Source of the DNA: Candidatus Rokuibacteriota bacterium
GTDB taxonomy: Bacteria > JAUVQV01 > DATDCY01
Assembly: GCA_031406795.1 (NCBI GenBank)
Contig: JANOHV010000188.1
Coordinates: 1 to 46,149, forward strand
Direction: 5' to 3'
DNA length: 46,149 nt
The notes beneath the pieces are model-generated. The model was not told the DNA's origin, did no database searches, and saw only the letters and a program-made list of their open reading frames with translations. The position numbers and the translations under genes are program-made. Below, in pieces: positions 1 to 17,808 of the stretch (positions are counted from its first letter, which is position 1; each line of letters opens with the position of its first letter).

Positions 1-3000
1 CATCGAGGTCTTGTTGCTCTGCGCCGCGTGGCAGTTGCCGCAGTCGTTCGGCACCCAGAGGCTGGCGTCGTGCTTGGTGTGCCGCGCACCGTCGAGGCCG
101 GTCGAAGGCGGAGCCGCGTGGCAGATCGTGCAGTCCGCGGAAACCACTCCCCAGCCCGGTGAGACGACCGCGGTTCCCTTGCCGTTGGCGTGGCAGCTCG
201 TCGTCGTGCAGGTGCCGAACGGCGCCCCGTACGGGATCGCCACCGTGCCGCTGTAGGTCAGAGCAGTCATGTTCACCAGGTTCACCGACCCGCTCATGTG
301 ACCGTAGTTGGAACCCGTCGCCCAGTCCGGGTGGCAACTCGTGCAGGCGATCGTGGTGATGCCGAAGAGCGTCGCCGCATTCATGTGCGTCGCGTGGCTC
401 CCGGTCGCCGGCCCCGGGCTCGCCGCCGCGTGGCAGAGCGTGCAGCTCGCGCTCGCCGTCCCCCACGCCGGGCTCACGTACGCCCCGGCCGAGGGGTTGT
501 GGCAGCGGTTCGCGCAGACGTTCGTGGCGTCGGTCCAGTCCGGTGCGATGGTTGACGCGAACCAGGTGCCGCCGACCGTCCCGGGGACCAGCGCCGTGTC
601 CTGCACCGGCACCGCCTTCGGCGTCAGCACCTGGGCGTCGGTCCCGACCCCCGGGGTCAGGTGCGAGAGGCCGATCGTGCTCGAGGCCGCGCCCGCCGTG
701 TCGGTCGTGTTGTCGGCGTGGCAGTCCGTGCACGACCAAATCCGGCCGGTCGCGTCGAAGTGCCCGTCGTGCGCCGCCGTCTTGGAGATCTGCCGGAACG
801 TCGTCCCCGTGCTGTTGCCCGCGCTCGTGGGGTTGCCCGCCAGGTTGAAGTAGTGGCAGGCGTCGCAATTGAGCACCGGGTCGTTCCAGCGCCCGTCCGC
901 CGCCGCCGAGCTGTGGCAGGTGTTCGCCGAGCAATACCCGTCGACATTGAGCGGCGGCGCAGATCCTGCCCACGTCAGCAGCACGTTGGTCGTGCCGTCC
1001 GCGTGCGCCGCCACGATCGGGCTCGCCGCGTCGATCAGCTGCACGCTCGTGTGACACAGGTTGCAGTCCGTCCGGTCCGTCGCCTGGTTGTTCGTCACGT
1101 GCAGCGTGTGCGCGCCGGTGGCCGGCACGTCGGCGTGGCAGCCCGTGCAGGTCAGCCGCGCCGGGTCCGCAATGCCCCAGGTCGGGCTCCCCGTCCCCGT
1201 CCAGTCCGTCTGGCTCGTCGTGTTGTCGCCGTGGCAGTACAAATTCGCGCAGACGCCGTTGTGCGTCGCGCTCGCCCCCGTGCCCGCGTCCGCGTCGCCG
1301 CCGGCGTAGGTCAGGTTCGTCCCCGGGTTGCGCGCCGGGTCGAACCGCACGTTGATGTTCGCGATCGGCACGTTCGTGTCGTTCCAGGTCCCGCCGTTGA
1401 AGTAGTTGCTCTGATTGTGGTTGTAGCCGAAGTGGCAGACCGTGCACGCGTACGCGTACCCCGTCGTCGCGTTGACGTGCATGGTGTGCACGCCGCTGAG
1501 CGTGTGGTCCGACGGACCCGCCAGCCCCGGGTAGCTGTGGCACGAGTCGCACGACTGGGGCATGAACCCGTCCGCCGTGCCGGCCGCGTTGTTGTCGTAA
1601 TTGTGCACGTGGCAGGCGGCGCAGTTCTTCCCCGTGTCCACCCCCTGGTAGCCGCCGGCGTTGCCCGTGTGGTCCCCGCCGACCGTCCGCAGCGCCGTGC
1701 CCGAACCGGGGCGGCTCGCGTTGGTGTGGCAGGTCAGGCAGAGGTTGTCCGCCGTCGTCAGGCCGTCGTCCAGCGAGTCGACCCCGGAGACCCGCTCGAA
1801 CCGGATATTCGCGATCGTCGTCGCGTCCGCGCCGCCTGGCAGCGACGTAAACGAACTGCCCACCCCGACCGACGCCTTGATCATGTAGATGTTCGCCCAA
1901 CTCGCGCCGTTGGTCATCCCGTGCACGTTGTGGCAGGCGTTGCAGTTGTACGCGAACGCCTCCGCGTTCGCGTCGCGCAGCGGCGCCACGAACGCACCGT
2001 TCTGGTTCCCGTGCGTCGACACCTGGCTCGACGCCGGCGTGCCCGACCCCGTCGCGTGGCAGGCGTTGCAGGCGCCGGTCACCGTCGAGATCGCCGCCAC
2101 CCCGTTGATCGTCGCCAGCAGCCGCTGCCCGGCGTACGTCGTGTCGTTCACCCCGTTGATGTGCGCCGTCGTCTTGTCGTGGCACGCGTCGCACAGCTTC
2201 GCCGCCGGCGGGTTCGTCACCACCGCCGCCGCGTCCGTGTAGTTGCCCGACGCCAGCGAGCGGTTGTGCCCCCGGATCTCGGCGCCGTAGCTGCTGTCGT
2301 TGCCCAGCTCGTCCGGCGCCCCGATTCCCGTCCCATCCGCGTTCTGTGTCGCCGCGTCCGCCCCGTTGTGACAGCTCAGGCACGGTAGCTCGTAGGCCGC
2401 CGTGTCCCAGTTGCTCTTCGCCAGCACCGTGCCGACGCCGGTCACCGTCCCCGGCCCCGTCACGTTCGCCGTCACCGACGTCGTCGAGTGGCAGTGGTTG
2501 CACCTATCCGTGCTCGTCCCATCCGGCGCTCCCGCCGGCGCCGTCAGGCCCAGCACCGCGTCCACCGAGGTCCCGGTCAGCACGTTGGCGAACTGTACCG
2601 AACCGTCGATGTGCTTGGGCCGCAGGTTCATCGACGTGTTGTTCGCGTTCGCCACGTGGCAGGCGCCGCAGTTCGTATTGAAGTTCGGCCCGTACGCAGC
2701 CGAGAGGTGGTCCGTGTGGTTGCCGCTCGTCGGCGTCTGCAGGTGGCAGACCGCGCAGCTCGGCTCGGCGATCGGCGTGCCCCAACTCGAGCTGGCGACC
2801 GCCGTGCCGTTGCCGTCCTGGTGGCACGACGTCGTCGTGCAGGTCCCGAAGGGCGCCCCGTAGGGGATCGTCAGCGTGCCGCTGTAGGTCAGCGCGGTCA
2901 TGTTCGCCAGGTTCACCGCCCCGGACATGTGGCCGTCGTTGCCGACGTTGTTCTGGTGGCAGCTCGTGCAAGCAATCGTCAGCCCGTACGTCGCCGTCGC

Positions 3001-5330
3001 GCCGATATGCGCGACGTGGCTGCCGGTGGCCGGCGCCGCCGCGGTGTTGTGGCAGAACTCGCAGCCGGTGCTCGCCGTGCCCCACGCCGTGCTCAGCTTG
3101 GCCGCCGCCGAGGGGTTGTGGCACTTGTTCGCGCAGGTGTTCGCCGCGTCGACCCAGTCGGCCGGCGCGTTCCACCACAGCGCCACCACCGTCGTGTCGA
3201 TCGCCGCGTTGTCCTGCGACGGGATCGCCCGGCCCTGCACGATCGCCGCGTCGGTGCCGGCTCCCGGCGTCACGTGCGCCAGCGGGCTGGTGTCCAGCGC
3301 GTTGTTCGGGTGGCAGTCGTTGCAGCTCCAGGTCCGTCCCGTCGCCGCAAAGTGCCCGTCGTGGCTCGACTCCGAGATCGGCCGGTACGTCGTCCCGACC
3401 GAGTTAGTCGCCGCGGACGGGTTCCCCACCGTGTTGTAGTAGTGGCACGCGTCGCAGTTCAGCGCCGTGTCAGTCCAGGAGCCGTCCCCGGGCGCTGCCG
3501 CCGAAGCGTGGCAGGCCCCGGTGCAGTACCCATCGGAGAACAGCGGCCCGGTCGCGCCCGCGTAGCCCATCGCGCCCAAAACCGCCGTCGTCCCGTCCGC
3601 GTGCGAGGAGACGATCGGACTGGCCGCGTCGATCAGCTGCACGTTGGTGTGGCACAGGTTGCAGTCCGTTCGGTCCGTCGCGCCGTTGTTCACCACGTGC
3701 AGCGGGTGCGCGCCCGTCGTCGGCACGTCGCCGTGGCAGCCGCTGCAGGCCAGCCGCAGCGGGTCCGCCGTGCCCCAGGATGGGCTGCCCGTCCCGGTCC
3801 AGTCCGTCTGGCTCGACGTGTTGTCGCCGTGGCAGTACAGGTTCGCGCAGACGCCGTTGTGCGTCGCGCTCGCCCCCGTGCCCGCGTCCGCGTCGCCGCC
3901 GGCGTAGGTCAGGTTCGTCCCCGGGTTGCGCGCCGGGTCGAACCGCACGTTGATGTTCGCCACCGGCACGCTCGTGTCGTTCCAGGTCCCGCCCTTGAGG
4001 TAGCCGCTCTGGTTGTGGTTGTAGTTCAAGTGGCAGGTCGTGCAGGCATACGCGTACCCGGTGGTCGCGTTGACGTGCATCGCGTGCACGCCGCTGAGCG
4101 GGTGGTCCGACGGGCCCGCAAGCCCCGGATAGCTGTGGCACGCATCGCAGGGCTGCGGCATGAAACCGTCCACCGTGCCCGCCGCGTTGCTGTCGTAGTC
4201 GTGCGTGTGACAGCTGATGCAGTTCTTGCCCTGCTCGTTCCCGTTGAAGCCGGCCGCCCACTCGGAGTGATTCCCGTCCGTGTTGGTCAGTGCCGACGCG
4301 GCACCCGGCCGGTTGGCGTTCGCGTGACAGCTCACGCAGACGTCGTCCGCCGGCGTCGCCGTCGTGTCGTTGAACGAGTCGGTCCCCGTCAGCCGCAAAA
4401 AGCGCACCGGCGTCGTCTGCGCCCCGGCGCCCCCGGGGGTGCTCGTGAACGAGGTGCCGACCCCGACCGCCGCCTTGACCATGAAGATGTTCGCGTACCC
4501 GGCGCCGTTGGTCATCCCGTGCGGCTCGTGGCAGGCCTCGCAGCGGTACGCGAAGTCCTGCGCCCCGGCGGCGTCGTGCTGCGCCGTCGCCTTGAACGCC
4601 GCGTTCGTGTTCCCGTGCGTCGACACGCGGCTGGTCGCCGGCGTCGTCCCCCCGGGCGTGTGACAGGCGTTGCAGGCCCCGGTCACCGTCGCCCCGGTCA
4701 CCACCCCGTTGATCGTCGCCAGCAGCCGCTGCCCGGCGTACGTGGTGTCTTCCACGCCGTTGAAGTGCGTTGCCGCCGTGTCGTGGCACGCGTTGCAGAG
4801 CCGGGCCGCCGGCGGATTGGTCGTCGTTCCGTTGGCATCAGTGTAGCTCCCGTCGGCAAGGGAGCGATTGTGCCCGCGGACCTCGGCGCCGTAGCCGCCG
4901 GCCACGTCGCTGCCGAGCATGTCGGGGGCCATCCTGCCGCTGTGCGTCGCGTCGGCCGCGCCGTACGCCCCGGGATCCGTGCCGTTGTGGCAGCTCACGC
5001 AGGGCAGGCTGTAACCGGCCGTGTTCCAGTTCTGCTTCGCGAGCACCGTCCCGACCCCCGTCACCGTCGCCGGGCCCGCGATGTTCGCCGTCACCGACGC
5101 GGTGGAGTGGCAGTGCGAGCAGCGGTCGGTGCTGGATGCCGCCGGGTCCAGCGTCGGCGCCGTGGCCCCGAGGACCGAGGTGGCGTTCGGCGTGGTGTCG
5201 ACATTGAGGAAGTCCTTCTGGTTGTTCACGTGGGTGGCCGTGAAGTACGCCGGGTGGCAGGCGACGCAGGCCGTCACGTTGTCTGAACCGTACTGCGGCC
5301 CGAAGGCTGCCGTCAGGTGCGTGGTGTGCT
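1..5330 (-). repeat. Intragenic tandem duplication of a ~2.6 kb (~870 aa, 21-heme) module
   Basis: Same motif order in both copies (CxHCH, CxSCH ... CANLYCH ... CTTTSCH). 1244-1362 is identical to 3842-3960 (119 bp, offset 2598). 160-300 matches 2790-2930 and 2401-2500 matches 5020-5120. Confidence 0.92.
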
Positions 5331-8300
5331 TGCCGGTCGCGATAACCGTCGGGGTCGTGTCGGCATTCCCGGTGTCGTGGCAGGTGCCGCAGTCGGCCGT
5401 CGCGGTGACGTTCCAGGTCGGGGTGAGGTCGCTGCCGGCAGCCCCGGTCAGATCCGCCCCGTGGCAGTAAAAGTTGTTGCAGGTTGCGTACCCGGCGCCG
5501 AGGCCGAACTTGACCGCAAGATCGCTGCCGCTCTGAGTGGCGGCGACGCCGCCGGGCTCGCCGAGCGCCGTCAGGAAACTCAACTCCACCGAGCCGTTCT
5601 GATGGCTCATGTTGACCCCGTGGCTCGGGTGACAGTACGTGCAGGGGAAGTCGTACCCGGAATCGACGCGCTCATCGACGTGAATCAGGTGAGCGTTGAA
5701 CAGCGCGCCGGGGCCGCCGGAGTTGTAGGTCGCGTCTCCCTGGTGGCAGTTGGCGCACGTCGCTACCGCCCCCGGGTGGTACCAGCCGTCGCCGTCGGGG
5801 GGCGCCCCGGGAGCCGTCGGCGTCGTCGCCCGGTAGTGGCAGTCGACGTTCGAGCAGTCCTTGCCGCCGACGCCAGCGGCGTTGTCGTACGTGTCGGTTG
5901 CCACGCTGTTCGCGACGTTCGCGATGCTCCTGAAGGACGTCCCGCCGTTCTGCGGATCGCCGTGCACGTCGGCCGTGTTCGCGAGCGACCCGACCGTGTT
6001 GATCTCGTGGCCGCCGACGCCGGCGTTCGGGTGGCACCAGGTGCAGGTCTGGTTCTTCTTCTCCGTCGGGGTCAAGCCCGTGAGCGTCGCGGCGTTGACC
6101 GCGTAGATCGCGTCGATGTGCTGCTGGTGATCGCCGGGACGGTTCGGGTACGCGGTCCCGTGCTCCAGCGTTCCGTCGGGCCAGGAGTTCCCGGCCACGG
6201 AGTTGCCGTGGCAGCGCGTGCAACTGCCGACGAAGCTCCGGGTGTGGTCGTGGCAGACCATGCAGGAATCACCGGTCCCGCCCTGGTTGTGGTTGCCGGA
6301 GTGCGTCGTGTCGGGGTGCGGCGGGTTGGCCCCCGCCAGGTGGCAGGCATCGCAGACGCCGGTCTGTCCGGCGCCGGTCCCCGGGGCCGGATCGAGCTGG
6401 GTCAGGTCCAGGCCCCCGGACGCAAAATTCGTCACCGCGACCGGGTTGCTGACGCCGCCGAGGTTGCCGTCGAGGGTCGCCCTGATCATCGCGATCTTGC
6501 CGGTGCCGTGCGGGTCGTGGCAGGCGTCGCACTGGTACCCGGGGTTCGCGGCATAGTCGGCGCCGTTGCCGAAGGCATTCCCGGCGACCGCGGATGGCGC
6601 GTACCTCCCGGTCACGCCGCCCGAGTGGACCGAGGCCTGGGCCACGGCGTTGACGCCGAGGAGTCCGGGCGAGGACGGCCCGTGGCAGTCGAGACAGAAT
6701 TCGCTCTTGGCGGTCGTGTAGGCCAGCAGATCGGTGTTCGCATTCTCGAGGCGGTCCTGGCCGAGAGCGCCGCTGACGTGCGCAGAGTTCTCCGTGTGGC
6801 AGGTGGCGCAGGCGAATCCCGGTCCGCTGGCACCGTGCAGCGTGGCGGTGCCGAAGGAACCGGCGTTCCCGTGGCCGTTCGCGGTGTAGTAGGTGTCCTT
6901 CGACGGCGCGGCCACGCCGCCGGTCGCGGCGCGGCTGACGGCCGGCGAGGCCGTATTGTGGCAGAGCAGGCAGCTGGTGATCCGGGTCGCCGCGCCCCAG
7001 TTGGCCTTGGCGACCGTGGCGCCGACCTGGCCGCCGACGTTCGCGGTGGAGTGGCAGCGGCTGCAGATGTCGGTGGTCGCGAGCGGCGCGACCGTGCCGG
7101 AGCTCGTCGGGCTGGTGTAGAGGTCCGACATCGCGTCGCTCCAGCCCCGGTTCTGGTTCTCGAAGTCGACCTGGAAATCCGTTTCGATCGTGCCGTTCAC
7201 GTGGTTGCGCGAGGGCTCCCAGACATAGCCGGCGTCGTAGGCGCCGCCGGGCATGGGCGTGCCCGGGTTCAGAGCGTGGCAGTTCGTGGTGCAACCCGCG
7301 GGGGTGCCGACCGTGCCGTCGTCCTTCCACCCGTGACAGACCTGGCAGCGGCTCGAGTGGGAGTTGAGCCCCGGGCCCCACGCGATCAGGCTCTTGCCCG
7401 CCATGTGGGTGCCGTGGGCCCCCTGGGTCAACTGCTGCCCAAAGACGTTGCCGGCCTCGGTGTCGATGTCGTGGCAGGTCCCGCAGGTCCCGGTGGTGTG
7501 ATCGTTCCAGACCGGGGTGATGTCGGTGCCGCGGGTCCCGCCCGTGCCGTTGGCAGCGCCGCTGAAGTCCGCGCCGTGGCAGTACATGTTGGTGCAGGTC
7601 GTATTGGCCGCGACGCCGTACTTCAAGTTGCTCGTCGTCGGGGTGATGACTTCATCGGCAGGATCGAGATCCTTGTTGATCGTCGGGTTGCCGAGCGGGC
7701 TCAGGTCGATGGTGCCGTTGAGATGCGCGGTGTTGTTGAGCACGGTGTGACAGTAGGAGCACGCGTAGGTCTTGCTGGCGTTGACGTTCGGCGAGGCGAT
7801 CCCGGCGACGTGGGCCAGGTGGGAGTCCGGGAGGTCGCCGTTCACGAAGGTCGGCGCGGTGCCGACGACATAGGTGCGCCCGACTGTCGGATACGTGGTC
7901 GCGCCGACGAGGCCGCGGGTGTAGTGGCAGGTTTCGCAGTTCGGCACGTTGGTGTCGCCGCCCTCCCATCCGAGCGTCCCGGCGGCCGGCCCATAGGCGG
8001 GCGTCGGCTTTTCGTAGTGGCAGTCGGCGTTTGCACAGGCCAGCGTCGCGTTGTTGTAGGTTCCCAGCGTGTGCGTGTCGAGGGACGCGGCCCCGTCGAG
8101 AAGATTGTCGATGCGGCCGAAGGTGCCGACGTTGGCGGCAATCCCATCGTTGATGACGTCCACCCGGTTGAGGAGGCTGCCTCCGGTGTCGGTCCGGTGG
8201 TTCGCGCTGCCGGGTGCAGGATGGCAGTAGGCGCACATCTCGATCTGGTCGGCCTGGCTCAGCGTGAACCCTTCCTTGGCCCGCAGCGCGGCGATGTGCT

Positions 8301-11300
8301 CGGGGTGGGAGCCTTTGTCGCTGTCGTAATAATGGCCGGCGCTGTTCGTGCCGTCGGGCCAGATCTGGCCCAGGTTGGTCGTCTCGCGGTCGCCGTGGCA
8401 GAGCGCACAGCCGTAGGGCTGACCCCAGACCGCCGCGGGGTGGCAGCCGGAGGCGATGGTCATGTTGCCGCAGGAGCCGCCGATATACGAAAAGCCCTGG
8501 TCGGTACCGGCAGTCCCCACGCGGGTGTAGGGCGCGGTGTCGATCAGCGCGAGCATCGCCGCGTCGGCGCGGGGCGAAGCCTGGGCCGGCATCTGGGCGT
8601 GGAGGGAGCGATCCGCGCCGGTGTTCAGATGGCAGGTCACGCAGGAAAGCGTGTTGTGGGTGGTGCCGGTGTGGCGGCCGCCGCTGGCCGGGCTGTTCGG
8701 GCGCCCGGTCCCGTCGCCGGCCGTGCCGTGGCACATGTCGCAGCCGACCGGATTGGCCGACGCGGCGCCGGTGGCCTTCACGCGCAGGATGCCGTCGTCC
8801 CAGTCCGGCACGTCGAGCGAGCCGGTGCCGTGGCAGTAGGTCGCATCGCAGGTGTTGTCGTCGCCGGTGCCGCCGGTGGGTCCGACCCGGTCGAAGGTGC
8901 CGCCGGCGAGGAAATTGCCCGCGAAGGTGACATTCGAACTCTTGTCCATCGCCTCGTGAGTCACGCTATTATCCGGGTGGCACCGCGAGCAGTTGTAGGC
9001 GTAGTACGTCGGCTGAGCGCCGGCGTGAACCTGGTGCTCGCCCTGCGAGGGCCAGGCGTTAGTGAGTGCACCGTTGTTGGTACCGTTGTTGTGGCAGTGC
9101 GTGCAGCTGGTTGTGGCGACGCTCCAGGTGATCGTCGCGGCGGCGAACTGCCGGCCGCTGTGACAGCTCAGCGCGGAGCAGGTCTTGTCGTCGCCGTTGC
9201 CGGGAGTGTTGTCCGGCCCGTCGGCGTCCCAGGTGAAGCTCACTGCCTGGGGGTTGACCACCGGATAGGTGCCGCCGCCGACGACGTCCTTCTCGCGATC
9301 GACGTGCTGGCCGTTGCCGACGAGGATGCTCGTGCCGTTCGCGGTCGTGGTGGCATGGCAGTTCTGGCAGCCGACGTTCTTCGCGACGTGGCGGGCGTGG
9401 TTCCCGGCCGCGTCGGCTGGGTAGCTCTGGCCGGCGCCGTTGTTGTGGCAGGAGGTGCAGGGCAGATTGATCGACGCATAGTTCGGCGTCGTCAGCCCGG
9501 TCATCCAGATTGCGGAGCCGGCAAGGTTCACGGCGTTTACCGAAGAGCCGTTGGAGTGGCAGTAGAGGTTCGAACACTCGTTCGTCGCCACGTTGTAGTC
9601 GGGCGTCGCCTGCGGCACGGCACCGCCGGGAAAGAGCGTCGCGTTGACGTTGAACGTCTTGTCGAACCAGATCGACTCGTAGGTCGGCGGCGTGGTGCCG
9701 TGGGTCGCCCCGTCGTTCGTCTGGCTGTGGCACATTTTGCACGAGAAGCCGTAGCCCCCGAGGGCGGTGGAGTTGGCGTGGCGGGCGTGCGGCGTCATGG
9801 ACTCGAAGTGGTCGATGTAGTCGGCGTTCTGCGTAGCGAGACTGTTCGGCGGCTGGCCGTGGCAGGACGTGCAGATCCCGGCCGCGCCCCACGAACCCGA
9901 CGTGTCGTTGTGCTTGTGGCAGGTGCCGCAGTCGACCAGCGCGGTGGGGATGTTGCCGCCGGTGTGGTGGTTCCCCGCCATCAGGCCCGAGAGCGGGGAG
10001 AGAGGCACCGGGGGGGTACCCGCCGTCAGACCGGCGTGACAGATGCCGTTGTCACAGATGCCGCCGGCGACGATGTGCGGGGCGGTGCCGTCGTTGATGT
10101 AATAGTCGAAGTCGGCGCCGGCCGCGTGCTCAAAGACGGTGGCCTCCCGGCCGCCTGGTTCGCTCGCGGTCCGGTTCGGCAACTGCTGCGGGATCATGTA
10201 AATGTTGCTGGTCGTCCCGGAGCCCTCGGCGTGTTCGTCGTGGCAGTCGAGGCAGCCGACCGTCCCCTGGTGGGCCTTCATCGTCCCGTGGCAGGTGTAG
10301 CAGATCGAGGTCAGCGATTTGGTCGGGGTCAGCGACGAAAAGAGAGGATCCGGGGTGGCGGCGAACATCTTGCCGGTGGTGAACCGGGTGTCGGGCGCCA
10401 CGTACGGGGAATCGTGCCTCGCATTGACGGTGTGGCAGTTCGTGCAGTTGAAGTTCAGCGCGTTGCCCTTGCTCGAGGTGTTCATGCCGTGGCCGTGCCG
10501 CTCGAAGTTGTCCGCCGCGTCCCCGTTATAGTGGCAGACCGACGTGCAGTCCGTCGTCACGTCGAAGCCGGTGTCCCCCTCGTGCCCGTCGTTGAAGAGC
10601 CTCTGATTGCCGGAATAGTGCGTGTCGTGGCAGACGCGGCACTGGTTGTTGCCGCCGGCGAAGGCCGGTTTGAGCAGCGTGCCGTCGGACTCCGCGATCG
10701 CACCGCTGCCCCCGCCGCCGGTCACCCCGTCGCTGTGGGGGGAGGTCGCCGTGAGCTGAACATTGTGATCCGAGTCGTTGATGCCGTTGACCGGTGACGC
10801 TGCGTTGCCGTGACAGACGCGGCAAAGGTTGTCGTATTCGCCCGCGACGGTGACGCTCCGGAGCATGAAAGGGTTGGCGACCGGCGGAATGCCGTGCTCC
10901 GGGTAGCCGGGACCGGGGCCGACGGTCACGTCGTGGCAGTCCACGCAATCGAGCTCGTTCGGCGACGCCGAGCCCCAGGTCGAGAGGTACTCCCCCGCGG
11001 TGTTCGCGTTGGCGGCGAAATCCCGCCCGACCGGGTGCATCGAGGTTTTCCCGGTGAAGTGAGAGAGCACCCCGCGCATCTTGCTGTTGCCGGTGTTGTT
11101 GTGGCAGTAGGTGCAGCCGAACTGGGGGGGAGGGGCCGGGGTCGCCGGGTTGAACGCCGACTTCATCGCCGACATCGTCCGCGACGCCTTGTTGATGTAG
11201 CTCGTGCCGGTCTCTCCCTCATCGGTGTCCAGGGTGTGGCAGGAGTAGCACCCGGAACCGCCGGGCTCGGCGGCGAAGAAATGGAGCGCGGCGGCCGGAC

Positions 11301-11415
11301 GCACGTCTCCCAGGAGGACCGCAGCGAAGACGAGCGCCAGCACCCCGGTGAGCGTCGGGAGGGGACTGCGGTAGCGGTTCCCGCCACCTGTCTGCTGCGG
11401 TCGTCTTTGCGTCAT
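1..11415 (-). CDS. Giant secreted multiheme cytochrome c (CxxxxCH/CxxCH repeat type), 3'-partial, at least 3805 aa, about 89 heme motifs
   Basis: Manual translation of the minus frame from ATG at 11415 (GAGGAGG RBS at 11422-11428) found no stop down to position 1. N-terminus MTQRRPQQ...LTGVLALVFAAVLLGDVRPAAA is signal-peptide-like. About 70 CxxCH, 13 CxxxxCH, 5 CxxxCH and 1 Cx8CH motifs, from CYSCH (~11240) to CGNCH (28-42). Absent from the ORF track, probably because it has no stop in the window. Confidence 0.93.
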   Translation of the reverse strand, partial: MTQRRPQQTGGGNRYRSPLPTLTGVLALVFAAVLLGDVRPAAALHFFAAEPGGSGCYSCHTLDTDEGETGTSYINKASRTMSAMKSAFNPATPAPPPQFGCTYCHNNTGNSKMRGVLSHFTGKTSMHPVGRDFAANANTAGEYLSTWGSASPNELDCVDCHDVTVGPGPGYPEHGIPPVANPFMLRSVTVAGEYDNLCRVCHGNAASPVNGINDSDHNVQLTATSPHSDGVTGGGGSGAIAESDGTLLKPAFAGGNNQCRVCHDTHYSGNQRLFNDGHEGDTGFDVTTDCTSVCHYNGDAADNFERHGHGMNTSSKGNALNFNCTNCHTVNARHDSPYVAPDTRFTTGKMFAATPDPLFSSLTPTKSLTSICYTCHGTMKAHQGTVGCLDCHDEHAEGSGTTSNIYMIPQQLPNRTASEPGGREATVFEHAAGADFDYYINDGTAPHIVAGGICDNGICHAGLTAGTPPVPLSPLSGLMAGNHHTGGNIPTALVDCGTCHKHNDTSGSWGAAGICTSCHGQPPNSLATQNADYIDHFESMTPHARHANSTALGGYGFSCKMCHSQTNDGATHGTTPPTYESIWFDKTFNVNATLFPGGAVPQATPDYNVATNECSNLYCHSNGSSVNAVNLAGSAIWMTGLTTPNYASINLPCTSCHNNGAGQSYPADAAGNHARHVAKNVGCQNCHATTTANGTSILVGNGQHVDREKDVVGGGTYPVVNPQAVSFTWDADGPDNTPGNGDDKTCSALSCHSGRQFAAATITWSVATTSCTHCHNNGTNNGALTNAWPSQGEHQVHAGAQPTYYAYNCSRCHPDNSVTHEAMDKSSNVTFAGNFLAGGTFDRVGPTGGTGDDNTCDATYCHGTGSLDVPDWDDGILRVKATGAASANPVGCDMCHGTAGDGTGRPNSPASGGRHTGTTHNTLSCVTCHLNTGADRSLHAQMPAQASPRADAAMLALIDTAPYTRVGTAGTDQGFSYIGGSCGNMTIASGCHPAAVWGQPYGCALCHGDRETTNLGQIWPDGTNSAGHYYDSDKGSHPEHIAALRAKEGFTLSQADQIEMCAYCHPAPGSANHRTDTGGSLLNRVDVINDGIAANVGTFGRIDNLLDGAASLDTHTLGTYNNATLACANADCHYEKPTPAYGPAAGTLGWEGGDTNVPNCETCHYTRGLVGATTYPTVGRTYVVGTAPTFVNGDLPDSHLAHVAGIASPNVNASKTYACSYCHTVLNNTAHLNGTIDLSPLGNPTINKDLDPADEVITPTTSNLKYGVAANTTCTNMYCHGADFSGAANGTGGTRGTDITPVWNDHTTGTCGTCHDIDTEAGNVFGQQLTQGAHGTHMAGKSLIAWGPGLNSHSSRCQVCHGWKDDGTVGTPAGCTTNCHALNPGTPMPGGAYDAGYVWEPSRNHVNGTIETDFQVDFENQNRGWSDAMSDLYTSPTSSGTVAPLATTDICSRCHSTANVGGQVGATVAKANWGAATRITSCLLCHNTASPAVSRAATGGVAAPSKDTYYTANGHGNAGSFGTATLHGASGPGFACATCHTENSAHVSGALGQDRLENANTDLLAYTTAKSEFCLDCHGPSSPGLLGVNAVAQASVHSGGVTGRYAPSAVAGNAFGNGADYAANPGYQCDACHDPHGTGKIAMIRATLDGNLGGVSNPVAVTNFASGGLDLTQLDPAPGTGAGQTGVCDACHLAGANPPHPDTTHSGNHNQGGTGDSCMVCHDHTRSFVGSCTRCHGNSVAGNSWPDGTLEHGTAYPNRPGDHQQHIDAIYAVNAATLTGLTPTEKKNQTCTWCHPNAGVGGHEINTVGSLANTADVHGDPQNGGTSFRSIANVANSVATDTYDNAAGVGGKDCSNVDCHYRATTPTAPGAPPDGDGWYHPGAVATCANCHQGDATYNSGGPGALFNAHLIHVDERVDSGYDFPCTYCHPSHGVNMSHQNGSVELSFLTALGEPGGVAATQSGSDLAVKFGLGAGYATCNNFYCHGADLTGAAGSDLTPTWNVTATADCGTCHDTGNADTTPTVIATGKHTTHLTAAFGPQYGSDNVTACVACHPAYFTATHVNNQKDFLNVDTTPNATSVLGATAPTLDPAASSTDRCSHCHSTASVTANIAGPATVTGVGTVLAKQNWNTAGYSLPCVSCHNGTDPGAYGAADATHSGRMAPDMLGSDVAGGYGAEVRGHNRSLADGSYTDANGTTTNPPAARLCNACHDTAATHFNGVEDTTYAGQRLLATINGVVTGATVTGACNACHTPGGTTPATSRVSTHGNTNAAFKATAQHDAAGAQDFAYRCEACHEPHGMTNGAGYANIFMVKAAVGVGTSFTSTPGGAGAQTTPVRFLRLTGTDSFNDTTATPADDVCVSCHANANRPGAASALTNTDGNHSEWAAGFNGNEQGKNCISCHTHDYDSNAAGTVDGFMPQPCDACHSYPGLAGPSDHPLSGVHAMHVNATTGYAYACTTCHLNYNHNQSGYLKGGTWNDTSVPVANINVRFDPARNPGTNLTYAGGDADAGTGASATHNGVCANLYCHGDNTSSQTDWTGTGSPSWGTADPLRLACSGCHGDVPTTGAHPLHVVNNGATDRTDCNLCHTNVQLIDAASPIVSSHADGTTAVLGAMGYAGATGPLFSDGYCTGACHASAAAPGDGSWTDTALNCDACHYYNTVGNPSAATNSVGTTYRPISESSHDGHFAATGRTWSCNDCHPNNALDTSPLAHVTPGAGTDAAIVQGRAIPSQDNAAIDTTVVALWWNAPADWVDAANTCANKCHNPSAAAKLSTAWGTASTGCEFCHNTAAAPATGSHVAHIGATATYGLTIACTSCHQNNVGNDGHMSGAVNLANMTALTYSGTLTIPYGAPFGTCTTTSCHQDGNGTAVASSSWGTPIAEPSCAVCHLQTPTSGNHTDHLSAAYGPNFNTNCGACHVANANNTSMNLRPKHIDGSVQFANVLTGTSVDAVLGLTAPAGAPDGTSTDRCNHCHSTTSVTANVTGPGTVTGVGTVLAKSNWDTAAYELPCLSCHNGADAATQNADGTGIGAPDELGNDSSYGAEIRGHNRSLASGNYTDAAAVVTNPPAAKLCDACHDKTTAHINGVNDTTYAGQRLLATINGVAAISTVTGACNACHATGSGTPASSQVSTHGNQNGAFVAPLRDANAEAFAYNCNACHNVHGMTNGASWANIYMIKASVGVGSSFTSLPGGADATTIANIRFERVSGVDSLDDGLTTADNLCLTCHTNASRPGSGTALRTVGGDHTGNAGGYQGVDTGKNCAACHVHNYDNNAAGTADGFMPQSCDSCHSYPGLAGPSDHTLSGVHTMHVNATTGYAYACTVCHFGYNHNQSNYFNGGTWNDTNVPIANINVRFDPARNPGTNLTYAGGDADAGTGASATHNGVCANLYCHGDNTTSQTDWTGTGSPTWGIADPARLTCTGCHADVPATGAHTLHVTNNQATDRTDCNLCHTSVQLIDAASPIVAAHADGTTNVLLTWAGSAPPLNVDGYCSANTCHSSAAADGRWNDPVLNCDACHYFNLAGNPTSAGNSTGTTFRQISKTAAHDGHFDATGRIWSCTDCHADNTTDTAGAASSTIGLSHLTPGVGTDAQVLTPKAVPVQDTALVPGTVGGTWFASTIAPDWTDATNVCANRCHNPSAGAYVSPAWGTASASCTLCHAAASPGPATGSHATHMNAATLFGITTIACTSCHPDWATGSNYGHMSGSVNLVNMTALTYSGTVAIPYGAPFGTCTTTSCHANGKGTAVVSPGWGVVSADCTICHAAPPSTGLDGARHTKHDASLWVPNDCGNCHAAQSNKTSM

Positions 11416-11443
11416 ACTCATCCTCCTCAGTGCAAAAATACCT

Positions 11444-11463
11444 GACGCGTCCCGGGACGCGTC
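11444..11463. terminator. Perfect 20-bp palindrome (hairpin) between the two giant cytochrome genes; possible attenuator or mRNA-stability element
   Basis: GACGCGTCCCGGGACGCGTC is self-complementary. On the minus strand it is followed by AGGTATTTTT and then the RBS of the giant gene. Confidence 0.45.
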
Positions 11464-11492
11464 TGACTCGTCCTTCCCATGCCGCCCCATGC

Positions 11493-14400
11493 TCAGATGT
11501 GGCAGACCAGACACAGCGTGCTCTGCTCCTGGAACTTGTCCCGCATCATCCTGTTGGTATTCTTCCCGGACTCGGTGACCGCCGTCCCGTGCGGATTGTG
11601 GCAGGAGATGCACGGGGTGAAATCGTCCGGCGCAGTGCTGCCGAGTGTGGAGATGTCGCTGTCAACCGGGTATGCGATGCTCTCGCCGTCGGCGACGGTC
11701 GCCTTGTCGCCGAAGCGCACCGCGTTGAGCACGTTGTTGAGGTTGTTCGCGGCCACACCCTCGGCCTTTGCGTGTCGCATGTTGCTCACGCCGGCGGGCT
11801 GGTGGCACCGCATGTAGCAGGCGAGGTCGAAACCGACCTGAACGTCCCAGGCGTTGCTCCCCGCCACAATGAAGGGGTAGGTGCCGTCGGTCAACAGGTG
11901 GTAGTTGTTCACGTGCCGGACCGCGTTGCCCCGTCCCGTGACGCCGTCGATAACCCCGTTGAGGTGATGGCTCAGGAGGGAGTGGCAATCGGTACAAGCC
12001 TTGTCCGGGGTGAGCGCGGTCGTTGGAGCGTTCGGCGCTGAACCGTTTGAGCCGTGACCGTTGACGTTGTACCCCCACGCGCCGTCGTCGTAGGGCTTGG
12101 GTGTGGTGCCGACGCCGTTGAAGTTCGTCCCCGGGCCCATGACGTTCGGTCCCGGGCCGTCAAAGTCGTGGCAATTCTCGCAGTCGCCGGCACCGAAGTC
12201 GCCGTAGTTGACCGGCCAGCCGCTGTTGGTGTTGAGAACCAAGGTCGCGGCGTGACAGGCCTTTGCGCAGCCGCCCGCATTGGTGCCGACGTTGATGTAC
12301 CCGGCTCCGGTGGTCGGCTCCGGGCCGTTCATCGTGATCGAGCCGTCCCCGTGAGCGGGCGCGGTGCCGTTCCAGCCACGATCGTAGTTGGCGTGCCCCC
12401 AGCCGTGGCAGGTCTGGCAGACGCTGTGCCGGTCCATCTTGTCGCCGGTGTTCCCGCCGTACGGGTCGGTGTGGTCCGTCGTCGTGGCGTCGGCCTCGAC
12501 GAGATTCCACGTGGCGAGCGTTCCGGTGCCGTCACCATGACAGTTGTCGCAGACATCTGCGCCCGGATTGTCCGTGGCGACGGGCTTGGCGTCCATCGCG
12601 CCAACCCACCTGCGCTTCCAGGGGCTGGGAGTGACCGGGACCGAGTCGACGACCGGGTAGTCGGTGTGGCAGGTCGCCTGACAGAAGGTCCGAGGCGGGA
12701 CCAAAACGTATCCGGTATTGTCATACGAGATCGGCCGATTGAGGTCGGTCGTGTTCCAGTTGTACGTGGTCCCTGGCACGGTCGAGTTTTGGGTGGTGCC
12801 GTCCAGGTGCGTGGTCGACGGGGCGGTGGCCAAGTGGCAACTCGGACAGAAGTCGTGCCTCAGCGCGGTGGTTGCGGCGTGCAGGCCCGAGGCCGGCGCG
12901 GGGCCGATATGCGTGGCGCTGTGGCAATCGGTGCAGGCCAGCGGGTCGGCGTCGACCCAGTCGCCATCGGTGGCAACCGTGACCAGGTGGCAGGAGTTCG
13001 AGCAGCTCCCGTCGGCGGGGTTATACGCGTAGACGGTGGCGTTGCCGCCCATGTCCACGCTGCCGTTGACGTGCGTCGCCGTGTGTCCGGTCATGTCGGT
13101 CTTGTTGTTGTTGGCGGTATGGCAGGAGCCGCACTTGAGCGGGACCAGGACGCCGTTGGCGTCGTGCGCCAGGTGCCGGCCATCCGGAGGCGGAGCGGCG
13201 TGGCAGGTGGTGCAGGCGAGCGGAGTGGCGGCGAGGTTCCAGACCGGGGACTTGACGTTCGGCGTGTTGCCGCTCCCGCCCCAGTCCGGCGTGTAGGTTG
13301 CGTTGTTGTCGCCGCCGTGACAGTAGACGCGGTAGCAGGACCGGGCGTACGTCGCATCGGCCGCCGCAGCGCCGCCGGTCTTGTAGGTGAAGCCCGTGTC
13401 GGTAGGCGCCGGGTCTGCCGTTGTATTGTTGTTCTTGTCGTAGTACCCGTTGCTCCCGTGCGCGGCCTCGAGCGACCCCGCGTTGTCCCACTTCATGTCG
13501 ACCTCGCCGTTGCCGTGAGCCAGCGGTATCGGGTTGGTCCCGCTCACGGTGTAGTTGTCCGCGTGACACTCGGTGCACGCGAAGCGTATCGGCGCGCCGT
13601 CCACATGCGTGTCGTGCGCGATCGTGTACGTCGTCACGGCATGGCAGGCGAGGTTCGAGCAGGTTGTGTTGGGAAGGGTTGACTCAACCCAGACTGGCGG
13701 GGTATTCCAGAAGGGCGTCGTGGTCTGGTTGTGGCAGACCAGGTTGCCGCACGTTCCCTGGTTCACGGCGCCGGGGACGTATGCTGCACCGGTGGTGTCC
13801 TCGACCGGCGCGACCGGCGGCAGCGGCTCGGCCCCGACCGAGAACCGGCCGAAGTAGTTGCCGGGGCCCGAGGCGGTGTAGAGATCGACCCGCGAGTCGC
13901 CGCTGTTGGTACTGTGGCCCCCGCCACCGGGATTCGGGTGACAGTACCGGCAGATCTGCCTCTGCTTCGTAGAGGAGTTGGCGTCGAGGAGCAGCTGGGC
14001 AGCCGTCTGGCCGAAGACCCTCCGACTGATGGCCTCGACGTGGTTCTGGTGGGCGCCCGCGTTGTCGTCGGCGTATAATGGAGTGCCTCCCGCACCGTCC
14101 GGCCAGTACTGGTTTGTCGGCGGAGGTACCCCGTGACAACCGCTGCACCCCGAGGGCATGAAGGCGTCGCTCGTGGTCGTAATGTTGTCGTAGTCGTGGT
14201 CGTGACACGTCATGCAGTCCTGCCCGCGCAATTCGCCGATCCCCGCCGTTGAGCCCGAGTGGTTGCCGCCCCCCGTCCCCGCGCCGCCGCCGGTGGCCGG
14301 TACGTGGCAGGCTGCGCAGATGTCGTCATTGTCCGCAGCTCCGGTCTGGTCGTAGACGCCGTCGTTTTCGTCGAAGGAGTCCGGGCCCGTGGTCGCCGTG

Positions 14401-16541
14401 AAGACCACGGCATCGTCGGCGGTGGTGATTGCGGCGAGGGTCAGGTTGCCGGGGGTGGGGCTGGAGTCGACATAGGCCCTCTCCGTTGCGTCGGGGTTGC
14501 CGTCGCTGTCGACGTCGATCCACTTGCCAATCATGTAGAGGTTGCGCCCGGCACCGTTGAAGTTGGCCCCGTGCACGTTGTGGCACTGGCGGCAGGCGCG
14601 CGTGAACGAACCTTCCAGCGGAACGTAGCCACCGGCGGTATTGCTGTGGTGCGATTGGTCGAGGCCGTCCGCCACGGTGTCGACCCCGTTCTGGTGGCAG
14701 GCGTTGCAGGCCTGGTCGGGACCGGTGGGGTAGGTTGTCGAGGTGCCGATGCCCCCGCCGTTGATGGTGCTCTCCAGGCGCTTCGCGTCGCGAGGGTCGG
14801 TCGGCGCACTGTGGATCGACGGGAAGTGCATGCGCTCCGCGACGCCGGCGACGTATCTCGTGTTGTGGCAGACGATGCAATCCTTGGCGGCGCCGGCAGC
14901 ATTGTCGGGCGCGCCGGCGGTGCCGGGGGTCCCTACGGCGCCCCGGTCGTACACCGCTTTCACCGCACCAGGGAGGCCGACGCCGTGGCCGTTGACCTCG
15001 GCGCCGAAGCCGACCGCTGTCGACAAGCCGTTGCCCATCGCGTTGGGGGCGTACACGGTGCCGGCGACCGTCAAATCGGGGTCGATCTCGGAGGGCGTCG
15101 CGTCGTGGCACCACTTGCAGATCCTGATGTCGGCCGCGGCCGGGTTGTCGTAGGGGGTGTCGCCGTCGACCATGTCGGCTGTCCAGGTCAGGTCGCCGGC
15201 GTTGTCCGGTGGATCTCCGTGGCAGGCGAAATTCGCGCAGCGCTGGTCGCCGCCGCCCTTGGCCTTGAACTCGTATCCCGCCGGGAGCGTCTCGGAGCTG
15301 GCGGCTCCGGTGTACCTGGGGGCGCTTGCGCCGCTCCGTGTGTTGGTCGGGTCCCAGTAGGCGCCATCGCCCATGACGTCGACGTTCTGCCCTGGGTTGG
15401 TGCCCGGGAAGGTCCCGGCACCCTGGTTGTGCCAGGCCGCCGACCCCGCGTCGGGGCCGTGGCAGATTTCGCACTGGAAGATCGCGTCGCCGAGGGCGTC
15501 CTTGTGCCGCTGGTGGGCTCCAGCGCCGCCAGTGTAGTTCTCGACATCGGGACGCAGGACCCTGTCGAAAGAATTACCGCTGGCCTGGGCGATCGTCCGC
15601 AGCGGCGGGAACCCGTGACAATCCTCGCACGAGACGCTGATGCCGTTGTGCCGGTGGCATTGTGTGCAGGCGGTGGTCTTGGTGGAGAGGTGAGCTGAAA
15701 TCCTCGTGGTCGGCTTCGCGATGGTGGCGCTCCCGTAGGATGGCTTGACGGCGCTGAATGTCACCGCCTTATATGTCGTCTGCTCGGACGTCCCATGACA
15801 GGCGATGCAGAATTTTCTCGACTCGGCATCGTTCCGATCGTCGCTGGGGTCGGTATAGGCCATTCGCGTGCTGGCCCTCGTACCCGCGGGCACTTGCGGC
15901 GTCCCGGGCAAGTCTTCACGGATAAAGGCCTGGTACTTGGTGCGATGAGGATCGTGGCAGTCGGAGCAGGGGAGCTTGTCCCCTTGCGCGATCGACCCTG
16001 CCCCGGGGTTATTCTTGACATAGTGGCCGCTCTCGTAGGTCGAGGTGCCGCGCACCGTGCCCGAAGGAATGTTTTCGTAGTAGCCGGGTTTATCGTCGTT
16101 GTTCAACCCGTCACGGGGGTTGGTGGTCTCCATGTCGTCATCGAAGGCGACATCCTGAGGCGGTCGGGAGGTGTTGGGAAAGGTGTTGTCGGGAGGGTCG
16201 TTGTCTACTGTCGAATGGTTGTCGTGACAGTCGAAGCAGGCGATCGTGAATCCCCGCGCGTAGTTCGGATTCGACGTTTGGTCAAAAATGTCGTCTTCTT
16301 GTCCCAACCCCTTGAGTCCACGGGACCAGAGGACGTAGTCACTTTCCGCGGCGTGCGAAACATGGCAAGCGCCACAGGTGCCGCCCTTCGCCACGGTGCC
16401 GCCGCCCGAGAAGTCGTGCTTCGAGCCGGACACCGCGGTATCCGCCGCCATCGCGGCGCCTAGCCTCAGAAACACAAATACGGCGAGGCACAACGCGAGT
16501 GGCGCCCCCCGCCGAACAAAGTAAAACGGGGTTTTCATCAT
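11493..16541 (-). CDS. Large secreted multiheme cytochrome c, 34 heme motifs (CxxCH/CxxxCH/CxxxxCH)
   Basis: ORF track 1692 aa. Likely start MMKTPF at 16541 or 16538 after GGAGA; signal peptide ending ...LGAAMAA. 34 motifs counted from CGACH to terminal CLVCHI. OmcE-like N-terminus (GSKHDFS...CGACHVSH...LW...CFDCHD). Confidence 0.95.
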   Translation of the reverse strand: MMKTPFYFVRRGAPLALCLAVFVFLRLGAAMAADTAVSGSKHDFSGGGTVAKGGTCGACHVSHAAESDYVLWSRGLKGLGQEDDIFDQTSNPNYARGFTIACFDCHDNHSTVDNDPPDNTFPNTSRPPQDVAFDDDMETTNPRDGLNNDDKPGYYENIPSGTVRGTSTYESGHYVKNNPGAGSIAQGDKLPCSDCHDPHRTKYQAFIREDLPGTPQVPAGTRASTRMAYTDPSDDRNDAESRKFCIACHGTSEQTTYKAVTFSAVKPSYGSATIAKPTTRISAHLSTKTTACTQCHRHNGISVSCEDCHGFPPLRTIAQASGNSFDRVLRPDVENYTGGAGAHQRHKDALGDAIFQCEICHGPDAGSAAWHNQGAGTFPGTNPGQNVDVMGDGAYWDPTNTRSGASAPRYTGAASSETLPAGYEFKAKGGGDQRCANFACHGDPPDNAGDLTWTADMVDGDTPYDNPAAADIRICKWCHDATPSEIDPDLTVAGTVYAPNAMGNGLSTAVGFGAEVNGHGVGLPGAVKAVYDRGAVGTPGTAGAPDNAAGAAKDCIVCHNTRYVAGVAERMHFPSIHSAPTDPRDAKRLESTINGGGIGTSTTYPTGPDQACNACHQNGVDTVADGLDQSHHSNTAGGYVPLEGSFTRACRQCHNVHGANFNGAGRNLYMIGKWIDVDSDGNPDATERAYVDSSPTPGNLTLAAITTADDAVVFTATTGPDSFDENDGVYDQTGAADNDDICAACHVPATGGGAGTGGGNHSGSTAGIGELRGQDCMTCHDHDYDNITTTSDAFMPSGCSGCHGVPPPTNQYWPDGAGGTPLYADDNAGAHQNHVEAISRRVFGQTAAQLLLDANSSTKQRQICRYCHPNPGGGGHSTNSGDSRVDLYTASGPGNYFGRFSVGAEPLPPVAPVEDTTGAAYVPGAVNQGTCGNLVCHNQTTTPFWNTPPVWVESTLPNTTCSNLACHAVTTYTIAHDTHVDGAPIRFACTECHADNYTVSGTNPIPLAHGNGEVDMKWDNAGSLEAAHGSNGYYDKNNNTTADPAPTDTGFTYKTGGAAAADATYARSCYRVYCHGGDNNATYTPDWGGSGNTPNVKSPVWNLAATPLACTTCHAAPPPDGRHLAHDANGVLVPLKCGSCHTANNNKTDMTGHTATHVNGSVDMGGNATVYAYNPADGSCSNSCHLVTVATDGDWVDADPLACTDCHSATHIGPAPASGLHAATTALRHDFCPSCHLATAPSTTHLDGTTQNSTVPGTTYNWNTTDLNRPISYDNTGYVLVPPRTFCQATCHTDYPVVDSVPVTPSPWKRRWVGAMDAKPVATDNPGADVCDNCHGDGTGTLATWNLVEADATTTDHTDPYGGNTGDKMDRHSVCQTCHGWGHANYDRGWNGTAPAHGDGSITMNGPEPTTGAGYINVGTNAGGCAKACHAATLVLNTNSGWPVNYGDFGAGDCENCHDFDGPGPNVMGPGTNFNGVGTTPKPYDDGAWGYNVNGHGSNGSAPNAPTTALTPDKACTDCHSLLSHHLNGVIDGVTGRGNAVRHVNNYHLLTDGTYPFIVAGSNAWDVQVGFDLACYMRCHQPAGVSNMRHAKAEGVAANNLNNVLNAVRFGDKATVADGESIAYPVDSDISTLGSTAPDDFTPCISCHNPHGTAVTESGKNTNRMMRDKFQEQSTLCLVCHI

Positions 16542-16590: not shown

Positions 16591-17184
16591 CTAAGGGAAT
16601 AGCATTCTGCGGGTCGATCCCATGCTCTCCCCTGACTGGAACGCACCGACGAGGATGGCACGTGCCTGTTCGGGTGTCCGTCCCGCTTCGAGAGCCGCCG
16701 CCAGGTCGGGGAGCAACTCGTCCCGGTCGTCAACAGGAAAACCTTGTATAACCAGCGAGTTGAGAATGGATTTCGCCTTGTTGAACATCAGAGCCCGACG
16801 CTCGGCCACCTGGACGACGCGGTCCGCCGGAATCCGCTTCGAAACCCCCTCCTCGACCTTGGCGATGAACCCCTCGACCGGGAGCTTCTCCAACGCCATC
16901 TGCGCGACGATCGAGAGCACCCGCAGGGTCTGCGCCGCGTCGAACTCCCCTTCCACGCCGGCCTGGACGAGCGCCAGGGCATCGCGCTCCTCTACCCCCG
17001 CCTGTCGCGCGGTCGCAAAGGCCCGCTGCAGCCGGGCGCCCTCCTCGGCGCTGAACATCCCCTTCACGACGATCCGCTCCAGGGAACGGTTGGTGGTCTC
17101 GCCCGCCGCCGGGGAGCAGAGCACCCCGGCAAGCAGGGCAGTGGCGACAAGAGCCGTGCACAATCCTCGGAGTCTCGCTGTCAT
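16591..17184 (-). CDS. Exported hypothetical protein, third gene of the ECF module
   Basis: 197-aa ORF with signal-peptide-like N-terminus and GGAGA RBS; helical composition; lies 12 bp downstream of the anti-sigma gene. Confidence 0.75.
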   Translation of the reverse strand: MTARLRGLCTALVATALLAGVLCSPAAGETTNRSLERIVVKGMFSAEEGARLQRAFATARQAGVEERDALALVQAGVEGEFDAAQTLRVLSIVAQMALEKLPVEGFIAKVEEGVSKRIPADRVVQVAERRALMFNKAKSILNSLVIQGFPVDDRDELLPDLAAALEAGRTPEQARAILVGAFQSGESMGSTRRMLFP

Positions 17185-17196
17185 CTGATGATTCTC

Positions 17197-17808
17197 CTAT
17201 CCGTCGACGATGATGACCGAGTTCTCGCCCCCGAACCCGTCGGCGAGCAGGGTCTTCGCCGTCGGGTCGCTGACCCAGTTGCTGCCGTCGAGCACGAAAC
17301 TGTACTGGTAGACGCCGGGCGCGAGCTTGAGGCGCGCCCGCCAGAGCCCCTCGTGGCTGGAACGAACCAACTGCGTGCGCTGCGGGTCCCAGCCGTTGAA
17401 ATCGCCGACGATCGTCACCGAGGCCGCCTGCGGCGCCGTGAAGACGACCTCGACATCGCGCGCTGCGAACCGGTCCTGCAGCTGGAGCCTGCCCCTGGCG
17501 AGGAATCCGGCCACGATCAGCAGGACCGCGAGAGCCGGGATGCCCCCCCAGGAGAGCGCCCGGCGCAGCGGCGACGGACCGTACGCCTGCGCCGGGAGCG
17601 CGGCGAGGATGGAGTGCGAGAGCCCCGCCGGAACTTCGACATCGTCGAGACCGTCGAGGCGACTGTCCAGCCTCGTCAGCCCGGCGACGAGCGTCCGACA
17701 CTCGCCACAGCCCCGGACGTGGGCCTCGAGAATCTCGCGCTGACTGGGCAACAGGTACCCGCTGAGGTAGTCCTGAAGCATCAGCTCCACATCTTCGCAA
17801 AACAGCAT
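17197..17808 (-). CDS. Zinc-binding anti-sigma factor (zf-HC2/ZAS) with TM helix and C-terminal CBM48/AMPK-beta-like (isoamylase early set) domain
   Basis: HVRGCGEC (HxxxCxxC), hydrophobic segment IPALAVLLIVAGFLA, then VTIVGDFNGW...GVYQYSFVLDG.NWVSDP...DGFGGENSVI, typical of glycogen-binding early-set domains. AGGAG RBS. Confidence 0.88.
   Translation of the reverse strand: MLFCEDVELMLQDYLSGYLLPSQREILEAHVRGCGECRTLVAGLTRLDSRLDGLDDVEVPAGLSHSILAALPAQAYGPSPLRRALSWGGIPALAVLLIVAGFLARGRLQLQDRFAARDVEVVFTAPQAASVTIVGDFNGWDPQRTQLVRSSHEGLWRARLKLAPGVYQYSFVLDGSNWVSDPTAKTLLADGFGGENSVIIVDG

Follow-up and report, generated by a model that had tools for sequence, protein, structure and literature searches.

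The 46,149-nt stretch analysed here (the window; positions 1 to 46,149 of contig JANOHV010000188.1 from a Candidatus Rokuibacteriota bacterium, assembly GCA_031406795.1) begins with a single minus-strand gene that almost certainly encodes a giant multiheme c-type cytochrome (Table 1). An earlier prediction made from the letters alone, hereafter the original prediction, had described an uninterrupted frame with a ribosome-binding site (RBS) and a signal peptide, at least 3805 residues and about 89 hemes. Listing open reading frames (ORFs) with open ends and translating the strand, we found that the minus-strand frame 1..11613 comprises 3871 codons without a stop and leaves the contig at its left end; no stop or frameshift had been missed. 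The gene has three Met codons close to its 5′ end. The ATG at 11415 yields exactly 3805 residues and follows a Shine-Dalgarno-like AGGAGG at a distance of 6 nt, in agreement with the RBS claimed, while an ATG at 11421 directly abuts this element and is the less likely start. The N-terminus combines a basic stretch with a hydrophobic segment and an Ala-Ala-Ala site. All of the top ten 19-residue hydropathy windows of the protein fall into this segment, which is the only one with a Kyte-Doolittle mean above 1.6. Thus, the hallmarks of the proposed signal peptide are present, and, judging from composition and hydropathy, we describe the N-terminus as signal-peptide-like. The first Cys occurs at residue 56 or later, and since the signal segment itself is Cys-free, it is not of the lipoprotein type.

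The GC contents at codon positions 1, 2 and 3 of the frame are 0.58, 0.57 and 0.92. Such a bias towards GC at the third position (GC3) is expected in DNA of about 69% GC (66-71% around the gene), and we therefore regard the frame as a real coding gene. The gene was missing from the default ORF list because ORFs running off the source are left unlisted by default. The listed antisense and off-frame ORFs were ruled out as genes, as none of the six largest matches any Pfam family; the original prediction had already called them antisense shadows and off-frame fragments.

The visible protein contains 89 heme-binding motifs (70 CX2CH, 5 CX3CH, 13 CX4CH and 1 CX8CH), which corresponds to one motif per 42.8 residues and is close to the one per 43 residues proposed earlier. 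All 178 Cys of the protein fall within these motifs. In 500 shuffles of its residues, CxxCH appeared 0.44 times on average and three times at most. The longest motif-free stretch measures 71 residues, and the visible part is thus devoid of a large non-heme domain, again as proposed. When the protein was divided into 18 overlapping pieces of 400 residues, every piece matched multiheme-cytochrome Pfam families only. For all 13 CX4CH motifs, the next 22-42 residues lead to a CX2CH motif. Moreover, the protein contains 116 further His beyond the motifs, including conserved HxxH pairs (alignment A1), a number that would be enough for bis-His ligation at the hemes. The calculated mass after removal of the signal is ~384 kDa for the apoprotein and ~439 kDa with 89 hemes.

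Family models assign the protein to a named family. The NCBIfam model TIGR01904 (CxxxxCH/CxxCH domain c-type cytochrome) reached 126.4 bits over 11 stretches (cut-off 27) and PF09698 reached 37.7 bits over 3 stretches (cut-off 21.7), which identifies it as a member of the CxxxxCH/CxxCH domain c-type cytochrome family (TIGR01904/PF09698). PF22113, which describes the pentaheme domains II/IV of MtrC/MtrF, matched 7 stretches with 213.3 bits, and the Pfam families PF14522 and PF14537 also scored above their cut-offs. To our knowledge, the CxxxxCH/CxxCH family is experimentally unstudied. Within a size range of 2092-6659 residues, 47 relatives were retrieved, all of which show a mix of multiheme-cytochrome Pfam domains like that of the giant, in most cases including PF09698. 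Where their source names are given, they always read 'CxxxxCH/CxxCH domain' or 'CxxxxCH...CXXCH cytochrome family'. An alignment of 47 sequences (A3; 2855 columns, 9% mean identity) was discarded as too ragged. The best relative, P0002, is 52% identical to the giant and covers 53% of it; the two are collinear over residues 3-2013, and 45 of 46 motif positions are kept. The remainder is likewise represented, with residues 2423-3805 being collinear with P0005 and residues 2753-3805 with P0006. A HMMER search with one internal repeat unit (see below) against 1.84 billion cluster representatives returned 309 matches at E ≤ 1e-3, including 71 at E ≤ 1e-30. In the ESM Atlas, the nearest cluster bears the CxxxxCH/CxxCH family name (score 0.95), and look-alike clusters stem from Thermodesulfobacteriota, Myxococcota, Acidobacteriota and Rhodothermota. 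A second cytochrome of the window, 546 residues long, has a mate in its 90%-identity cluster that is named from a metagenome-assembled genome (MAG) of Acidobacteriota.

The C-termini of the relatives show recurring tails. A Gly-Trp-Asn-Lys-Val-x-Pro-Trp-like tail is found in 12 of 51 relatives and an ending in CH-Thr-x-Leu-Pro-Lys in 11 of 51, and several others terminate in Asn-Arg-Met-Leu-Arg...CxxCH. No classical anchor or sorting signal was present at the C-termini of P0002-P0052, P0150, P0172 and P0216. The tails may serve as docking or export signals.

Chunked self-BLAST revealed that a unit of ~870 residues and 21 hemes within the giant has been duplicated in tandem, which enlarged the protein. 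Aligned segments of the two copies are 52-86% identical and lie 864-878 residues apart, and all 21 motif positions are common to both. At the DNA level, the gene contains repeat families that are spaced 2592-2631 nt apart and show 73-88% identity over at most 300 nt. Older duplications are recognizable at offsets of ~700-730 residues. The 78 residues that follow the second copy resemble the start of a further unit but match the N-terminal parts of P0216 (80%) and P0150 (64%) better.

A repetitive gene at a contig end might also be an assembly artefact, i.e., a chimera or a frame with a wrong number of repeat copies. The contig does end within repeat-like sequence, a typical break site of metagenome assemblies, and the translation is lacking in the protein collection described below. 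However, with the DNA identities and short matching lengths given above, the repeat copies are too diverged for easy collapse or mis-joining. Base composition and GC3 are uniform along the frame, which shows neither a stop nor a change of frame, and the collinearity with P0002, P0005 and P0006 extends over the ranges given above. We therefore consider an artefact extremely unlikely.

The left edge of the gene is the end of the contig and not merely that of the window, since six neighbouring window proteins are each recorded with a longest contig of 46,149 bases, the length of the window. The claim that the gene continues beyond it is supported by P0216, a protein of 671 residues, of which residues 1-127 are 80% identical to residues 3678-3805 of the giant with 4 of 4 motif positions kept. 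Beyond this overlap, P0216 has another 544 residues and 12 additional motifs, and its chain closes with a CxxCH. P0150 (648 residues) is 64% identical to the giant over the corresponding stretch, and the ending in a final CxxCH is common to P0150, P0172 and several giant relatives. Homology to P0216 thus suggests a complete protein of ~4350 residues and ~101 hemes. Alternatively, further ~870-residue units of 21 hemes may follow beyond the contig end instead of the ~544-residue ending of the P0216 type. The break of the assembly at this point would be accounted for if such extra copies were nearly identical; we nevertheless regard this continuation as very improbable. If two more units were indeed present, the protein would surpass the published 113-heme record and be the largest cytochrome known, a single-chain conductor considerably longer than 100 nm.

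The original prediction had called the gene unannotated. Of eight neighbouring window proteins looked up in a 15-billion-protein collection, six were found as exact matches, and the upstream 1681-residue cytochrome is also part of this collection. In contrast, translations of the giant from the starts 11415, 11421 and 11613 gave no exact match there. An 1800-residue query retrieved no near-identical protein among those of 3151-5000 residues, and a scan of genome contigs returned just two distant loci with 35% and 29% identity. The term thus applies to this particular translation, which is lacking because the gene is cut by the assembly end, but not to the family, for which many records carry both name and annotation. 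When genes this large are truncated by a contig end, they drop from protein sets, so that surveys of heme-number maxima are likely to undercount.

With respect to its size, the giant belongs to the upper end of what is known without exceeding it. The 47 size-matched relatives include P0005 with 110 motifs as well as P0011 and P0034 with 108 each; P0005 has no signal-like N-terminus and looks like a fragment. Of 194 relatives counted, 4 have at least 89 motifs and 33 at least 70, and the giant with its 89 visible motifs ranks fifth among itself and these 194. Single polypeptides of ~100 hemes represent an extreme of biological electron-transfer design, and we know of none that has been purified or structurally solved. 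As for published values, a 113-heme protein of 'Ca. Methanoperedens' is described as the highest recorded (PMC7082337; preprint 10.1101/2020.02.06.936641). The heme-number tail of Desulfuromonadia reaches up to 87 motifs, with 113 cited as the record (PMC11492766), and, with motifs defined more loosely, numbers from 3 to 116 were reported for peat metagenomes (preprint 10.64898/2026.05.27.727921). Judging from these reports and the public relatives with 108-110 motifs, the exceptional status implied by the original prediction was not supported. The general picture is unchanged, since the family is named, larger relatives are public, and the ideas of such proteins as wires and capacitors are in print. 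What the window contributes is a well-supported example, for which a start, a signal-like N-terminus and 89 conserved motifs are at hand and whose lineage lies apart from the usual cases, Geobacter and Methanoperedens. The gene also illustrates that such proteins can be enlarged when a unit of 21 hemes is duplicated in tandem.

Table 1 Features of the giant cytochrome gene and its upstream neighbours.
Feature	Position	Strand	Remarks
Giant multiheme c-type cytochrome, coding sequence	1..11415	minus	5′ end complete, 3′ end cut by contig end; 3805 residues, 89 motifs
Last visible residues 3728-3805 (78)	1..234	minus	3 motifs; 50-54% identical to residues 2851-2929, unit-start-like
Repeat unit copy 2, residues ~2852-3727	235..2862	minus	21 motifs; self-BLAST
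Repeat unit copy 1, residues ~1972-2851	2863..5502	minus	21 motifs; chunked self-BLAST
CX8CH motif (eight-residue spacer), residues 982-992	8440-8472	minus	aligned site CX6CH in P0002, CX2CH in P0006
Signal-peptide-like N-terminus, residues 1-43	11287..11415	minus	basic n-region, ~15 hydrophobic residues, Ala-Ala-Ala before predicted cut
Shine-Dalgarno-like AGGAGG	11422..11427	minus	6 nt upstream of ATG at 11415
Perfect 20-nt palindrome with T-run, terminator-like	11444..11463	minus	between upstream cytochrome stop (11493) and giant RBS, 13 nt before RBS
Upstream paralogous cytochrome	11493..16538	minus	1681 residues, 34 motifs; TIGR01904 45 bits; 29% identical to giant over 563 residues
Small secreted protein	16591-17184	minus	no family
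Anti-sigma factor	17197-17808	minus	zf-HC2 and CBM48-like domains
Extracytoplasmic function (ECF) sigma factor	17871-18479	minus	
14-heme cytochrome	18482-20407	minus	
NHL propeller protein	20397-22085	minus	

The whole contig constitutes a cytochrome island, which spans 11493-45697 beyond the giant. Its seven cytochrome ORFs amount to 184 motifs, of which 95 reside in the six besides the giant. Besides the genes listed in Table 1, the contig contains two more pairs of NHL and 14-heme-cytochrome genes, so that each of the three NHL-propeller genes lies beside a 14-heme cytochrome, as well as one 15-heme cytochrome and one cytochrome split by a TGA codon. It further encodes four thioredoxin/ResA-like proteins, a peptidyl-prolyl isomerase (PPIase) with a SurA-like neighbour, TPR proteins and an FGE-sulfatase-like protein. 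A scan of the whole window with Rfam gave no family at gathering score. The palindrome in front of the giant may serve to restrict expression of the giant, as a terminator or attenuator, or else to bind a protein. Sites combining a palindrome with a T-run occur six times in 7.5 kb versus 4.3 expected, which is weak evidence when taken alone.

The split multiheme cytochrome gene (23836-24990, minus strand) is interrupted by an in-frame TGA at 24238-24240. Its upstream part has a signal-like start and 4 CxxCH motifs, and the 133 same-frame codons after the TGA contribute 4 more. A 6-bp hairpin begins 12 nt after the TGA. No Rfam model for a selenocysteine insertion sequence matched at this site, and the hairpin folds no better than shuffled sequences (z = -0.5). 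The TGA could reflect selenocysteine, read-through, a pseudogene or a sequencing error.

With this information at hand, we propose that the giant serves as a secreted long-range electron conduit, a chain of inference that we hold to be moderately likely as a whole. The protein would be exported by Sec by means of its signal-like N-terminus, and hemes would subsequently be attached covalently at 89 or more sites. Composed of MtrC/MtrF-like and c7/c3-like heme modules, it would form an extended chain of closely spaced, mostly bis-His-ligated hemes, which could link the cell envelope to an electron acceptor or donor outside the cell, bridging tens of nanometres. It would work as part of the cytochrome island, with the ECF sigma/anti-sigma pair as a possible regulator. 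Within this scheme, we infer heme occupancy, extended shape, extracellular location, and the direction and partner of electron transfer. To act as a wire in a single chain is plausible for the giant, and this interpretation ('nanowire') has already been published for other long single-chain cytochromes (PMC11492766; PMC10734462). A 27-heme protein was modelled at a length of 350 Å with iron-iron distances below 15 Å (PMC11492766). Scaling from this value (~13 Å per heme), 89 hemes would by extrapolation span ~115 nm if fully extended.

Several points weigh against such a conduit. Motif counts are not equal to heme counts, and this applies in particular to the CX8CH site, where comparison with P0002 and P0006 suggests that the loop length drifts with both Cys and the His being kept. 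The heme-motif spacings given in the accessible part of PMC11492766 do not include CX8CH. Furthermore, the C-terminus of the giant is missing owing to the contig end. No porin, secretion or anchor gene was found by Pfam in the 46 kb. For porins, this result covers 27 scanned ORFs, of which 3 small ones are family-less; the contig ends at the giant, and distant porins often escape Pfam. Expression of the giant may, judging from its upstream region, depend on read-through of the terminator-like palindrome. Finally, AlphaFold2 yielded no usable model for a linear stacking of the hemes, as the 873-residue unit (12 sequences) reached a predicted local distance difference test (pLDDT) value of 32 and a 396-residue piece (33 sequences) one of 48.

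The failure to find a porin or secretion gene by Pfam in the window would also fit a protein that mainly stores electrons, i.e., a capacitor or periplasmic buffer whose ~90-100 hemes hold charge when external acceptors are scarce. The Sec-type N-terminus is the sole localisation signal seen, and storage has been put forward in print as one of two explanations for the long heme-number tail (PMC11492766; PMC10734462). However, the extrapolated ~115 nm of the extended chain would far exceed the 170 Å width of the periplasm (PMC11492766), and storage and conduction are not mutually exclusive. We thus consider storage as the main role possible but unlikely.

The modular build, with two 21-heme units and the older duplications at ~700-730 residues, could furthermore indicate that the giant is a precursor. 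Cleavage would then release smaller cytochromes that may polymerise or act on their own, and the active form would be something other than the single ~440-kDa chain. Among the nanowire cytochromes of Geobacter, at least one is known to be processed. In the giant, however, we saw neither linkers nor protease-site repeats nor non-heme spacers, the motifs being never more than 71 residues apart, Pfam and NCBIfam identified no protease gene in the window, and the relatives keep collinear frames of several thousand residues. Cleavage therefore appears improbable to us, and we retain the single-chain conduit as the preferred reading.

To relate the giant to known systems, we compared it with the outer-surface decaheme cytochromes MtrC, OmcA, MtrF and UndA of Shewanella, with which it has the PF22113 domain in common. 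Its heme number is 9-10 times higher. With 40 bits for TIGR03507 (cut-off 209.3), 89 motifs and no lipoprotein signal, it falls outside the OmcA/MtrC family, and with 23.6 bits for TIGR03508 (cut-off 192.2) it falls outside the DmsE/MtrA family as well. In contrast to the Shewanella decaheme systems, genes for MtrAB-type porin and periplasmic partners were not found by Pfam near the giant. A phmmer search of the giant against PDB chains returned 0 matches, and a profile of 3 sequences gave nothing below E 0.18. A profile of the repeat region built from 33 sequences retrieved HmcA, GSU1996, UndA, MtrA, OcwA, MtrF and MtrC, with motif-biased E-values of 6e-11 to 1e-4 for the UndA, MtrF and MtrC chains. 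These matches represent generic multiheme likeness only, since the matched positions 472-676 lie mostly outside the giant's part and are dominated by CxxCH spacing. Foldseek gave 0 matches in the PDB with the low-confidence AlphaFold2 model, which renders this comparison void.

The function proposed for the giant resembles that of OmcS, OmcE and OmcZ from Geobacter, in which a continuous chain of hemes provides long-range extracellular electron transfer. These cytochromes build filaments from subunits of 4-8 hemes, whereas the giant would be one chain of fixed length with ~90-100 hemes. Of the 94 PDB chains matched in the 33-sequence profile search, 60 were listed, and none of these is named as a filament cytochrome; the giant was not placed among the polymerising nanowires. 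Long single-chain cytochromes with a largely linear modelled shape, for which a role as wire or capacitor has been discussed, are the extracellular and periplasmic PCC3 cytochromes of Gallionellaceae (10-35 hemes; PMC10734462) and the 27-heme 'nanowire-like' cytochromes of Desulfuromonadia (PMC11492766). Both contain three to nine times fewer hemes, and PCC3 genes adjoin a porin gene, while none was found in the window of the giant. Uet-type electron-transfer clusters bring NHL, PPIase and multiheme cytochrome genes together (PMC10734462), a combination that the island of the giant recalls by gene content alone. Similar in scale is the protein of 'Methanoperedens manganireducens' (Leu et al. 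2020, PMC7082337), which also holds ~100 motifs in one polypeptide and for which extracellular electron transfer was proposed. This protein, which we liken to the giant by description only, is archaeal and described as fused to a surface-layer (S-layer) domain, whereas the visible part of the giant has no non-heme stretch of more than 71 residues.

Most similar to the giant are the other giant CxxxxCH/CxxCH cytochromes from Thermodesulfobacteriota, Myxococcota, Acidobacteriota and MAGs (e.g., P0002, P0005, P0011 and P0034), which match the same family models and show the same Pfam mix. They share its signal-peptide-like N-terminus, the confinement of nearly all Cys to heme motifs and a comparable motif density, with 35-57 residues per motif versus 42.8 in the giant. 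Among the proteins compared, only the giant of this window shows the tandem duplication of ~870 residues, each copy of which holds 21 hemes.

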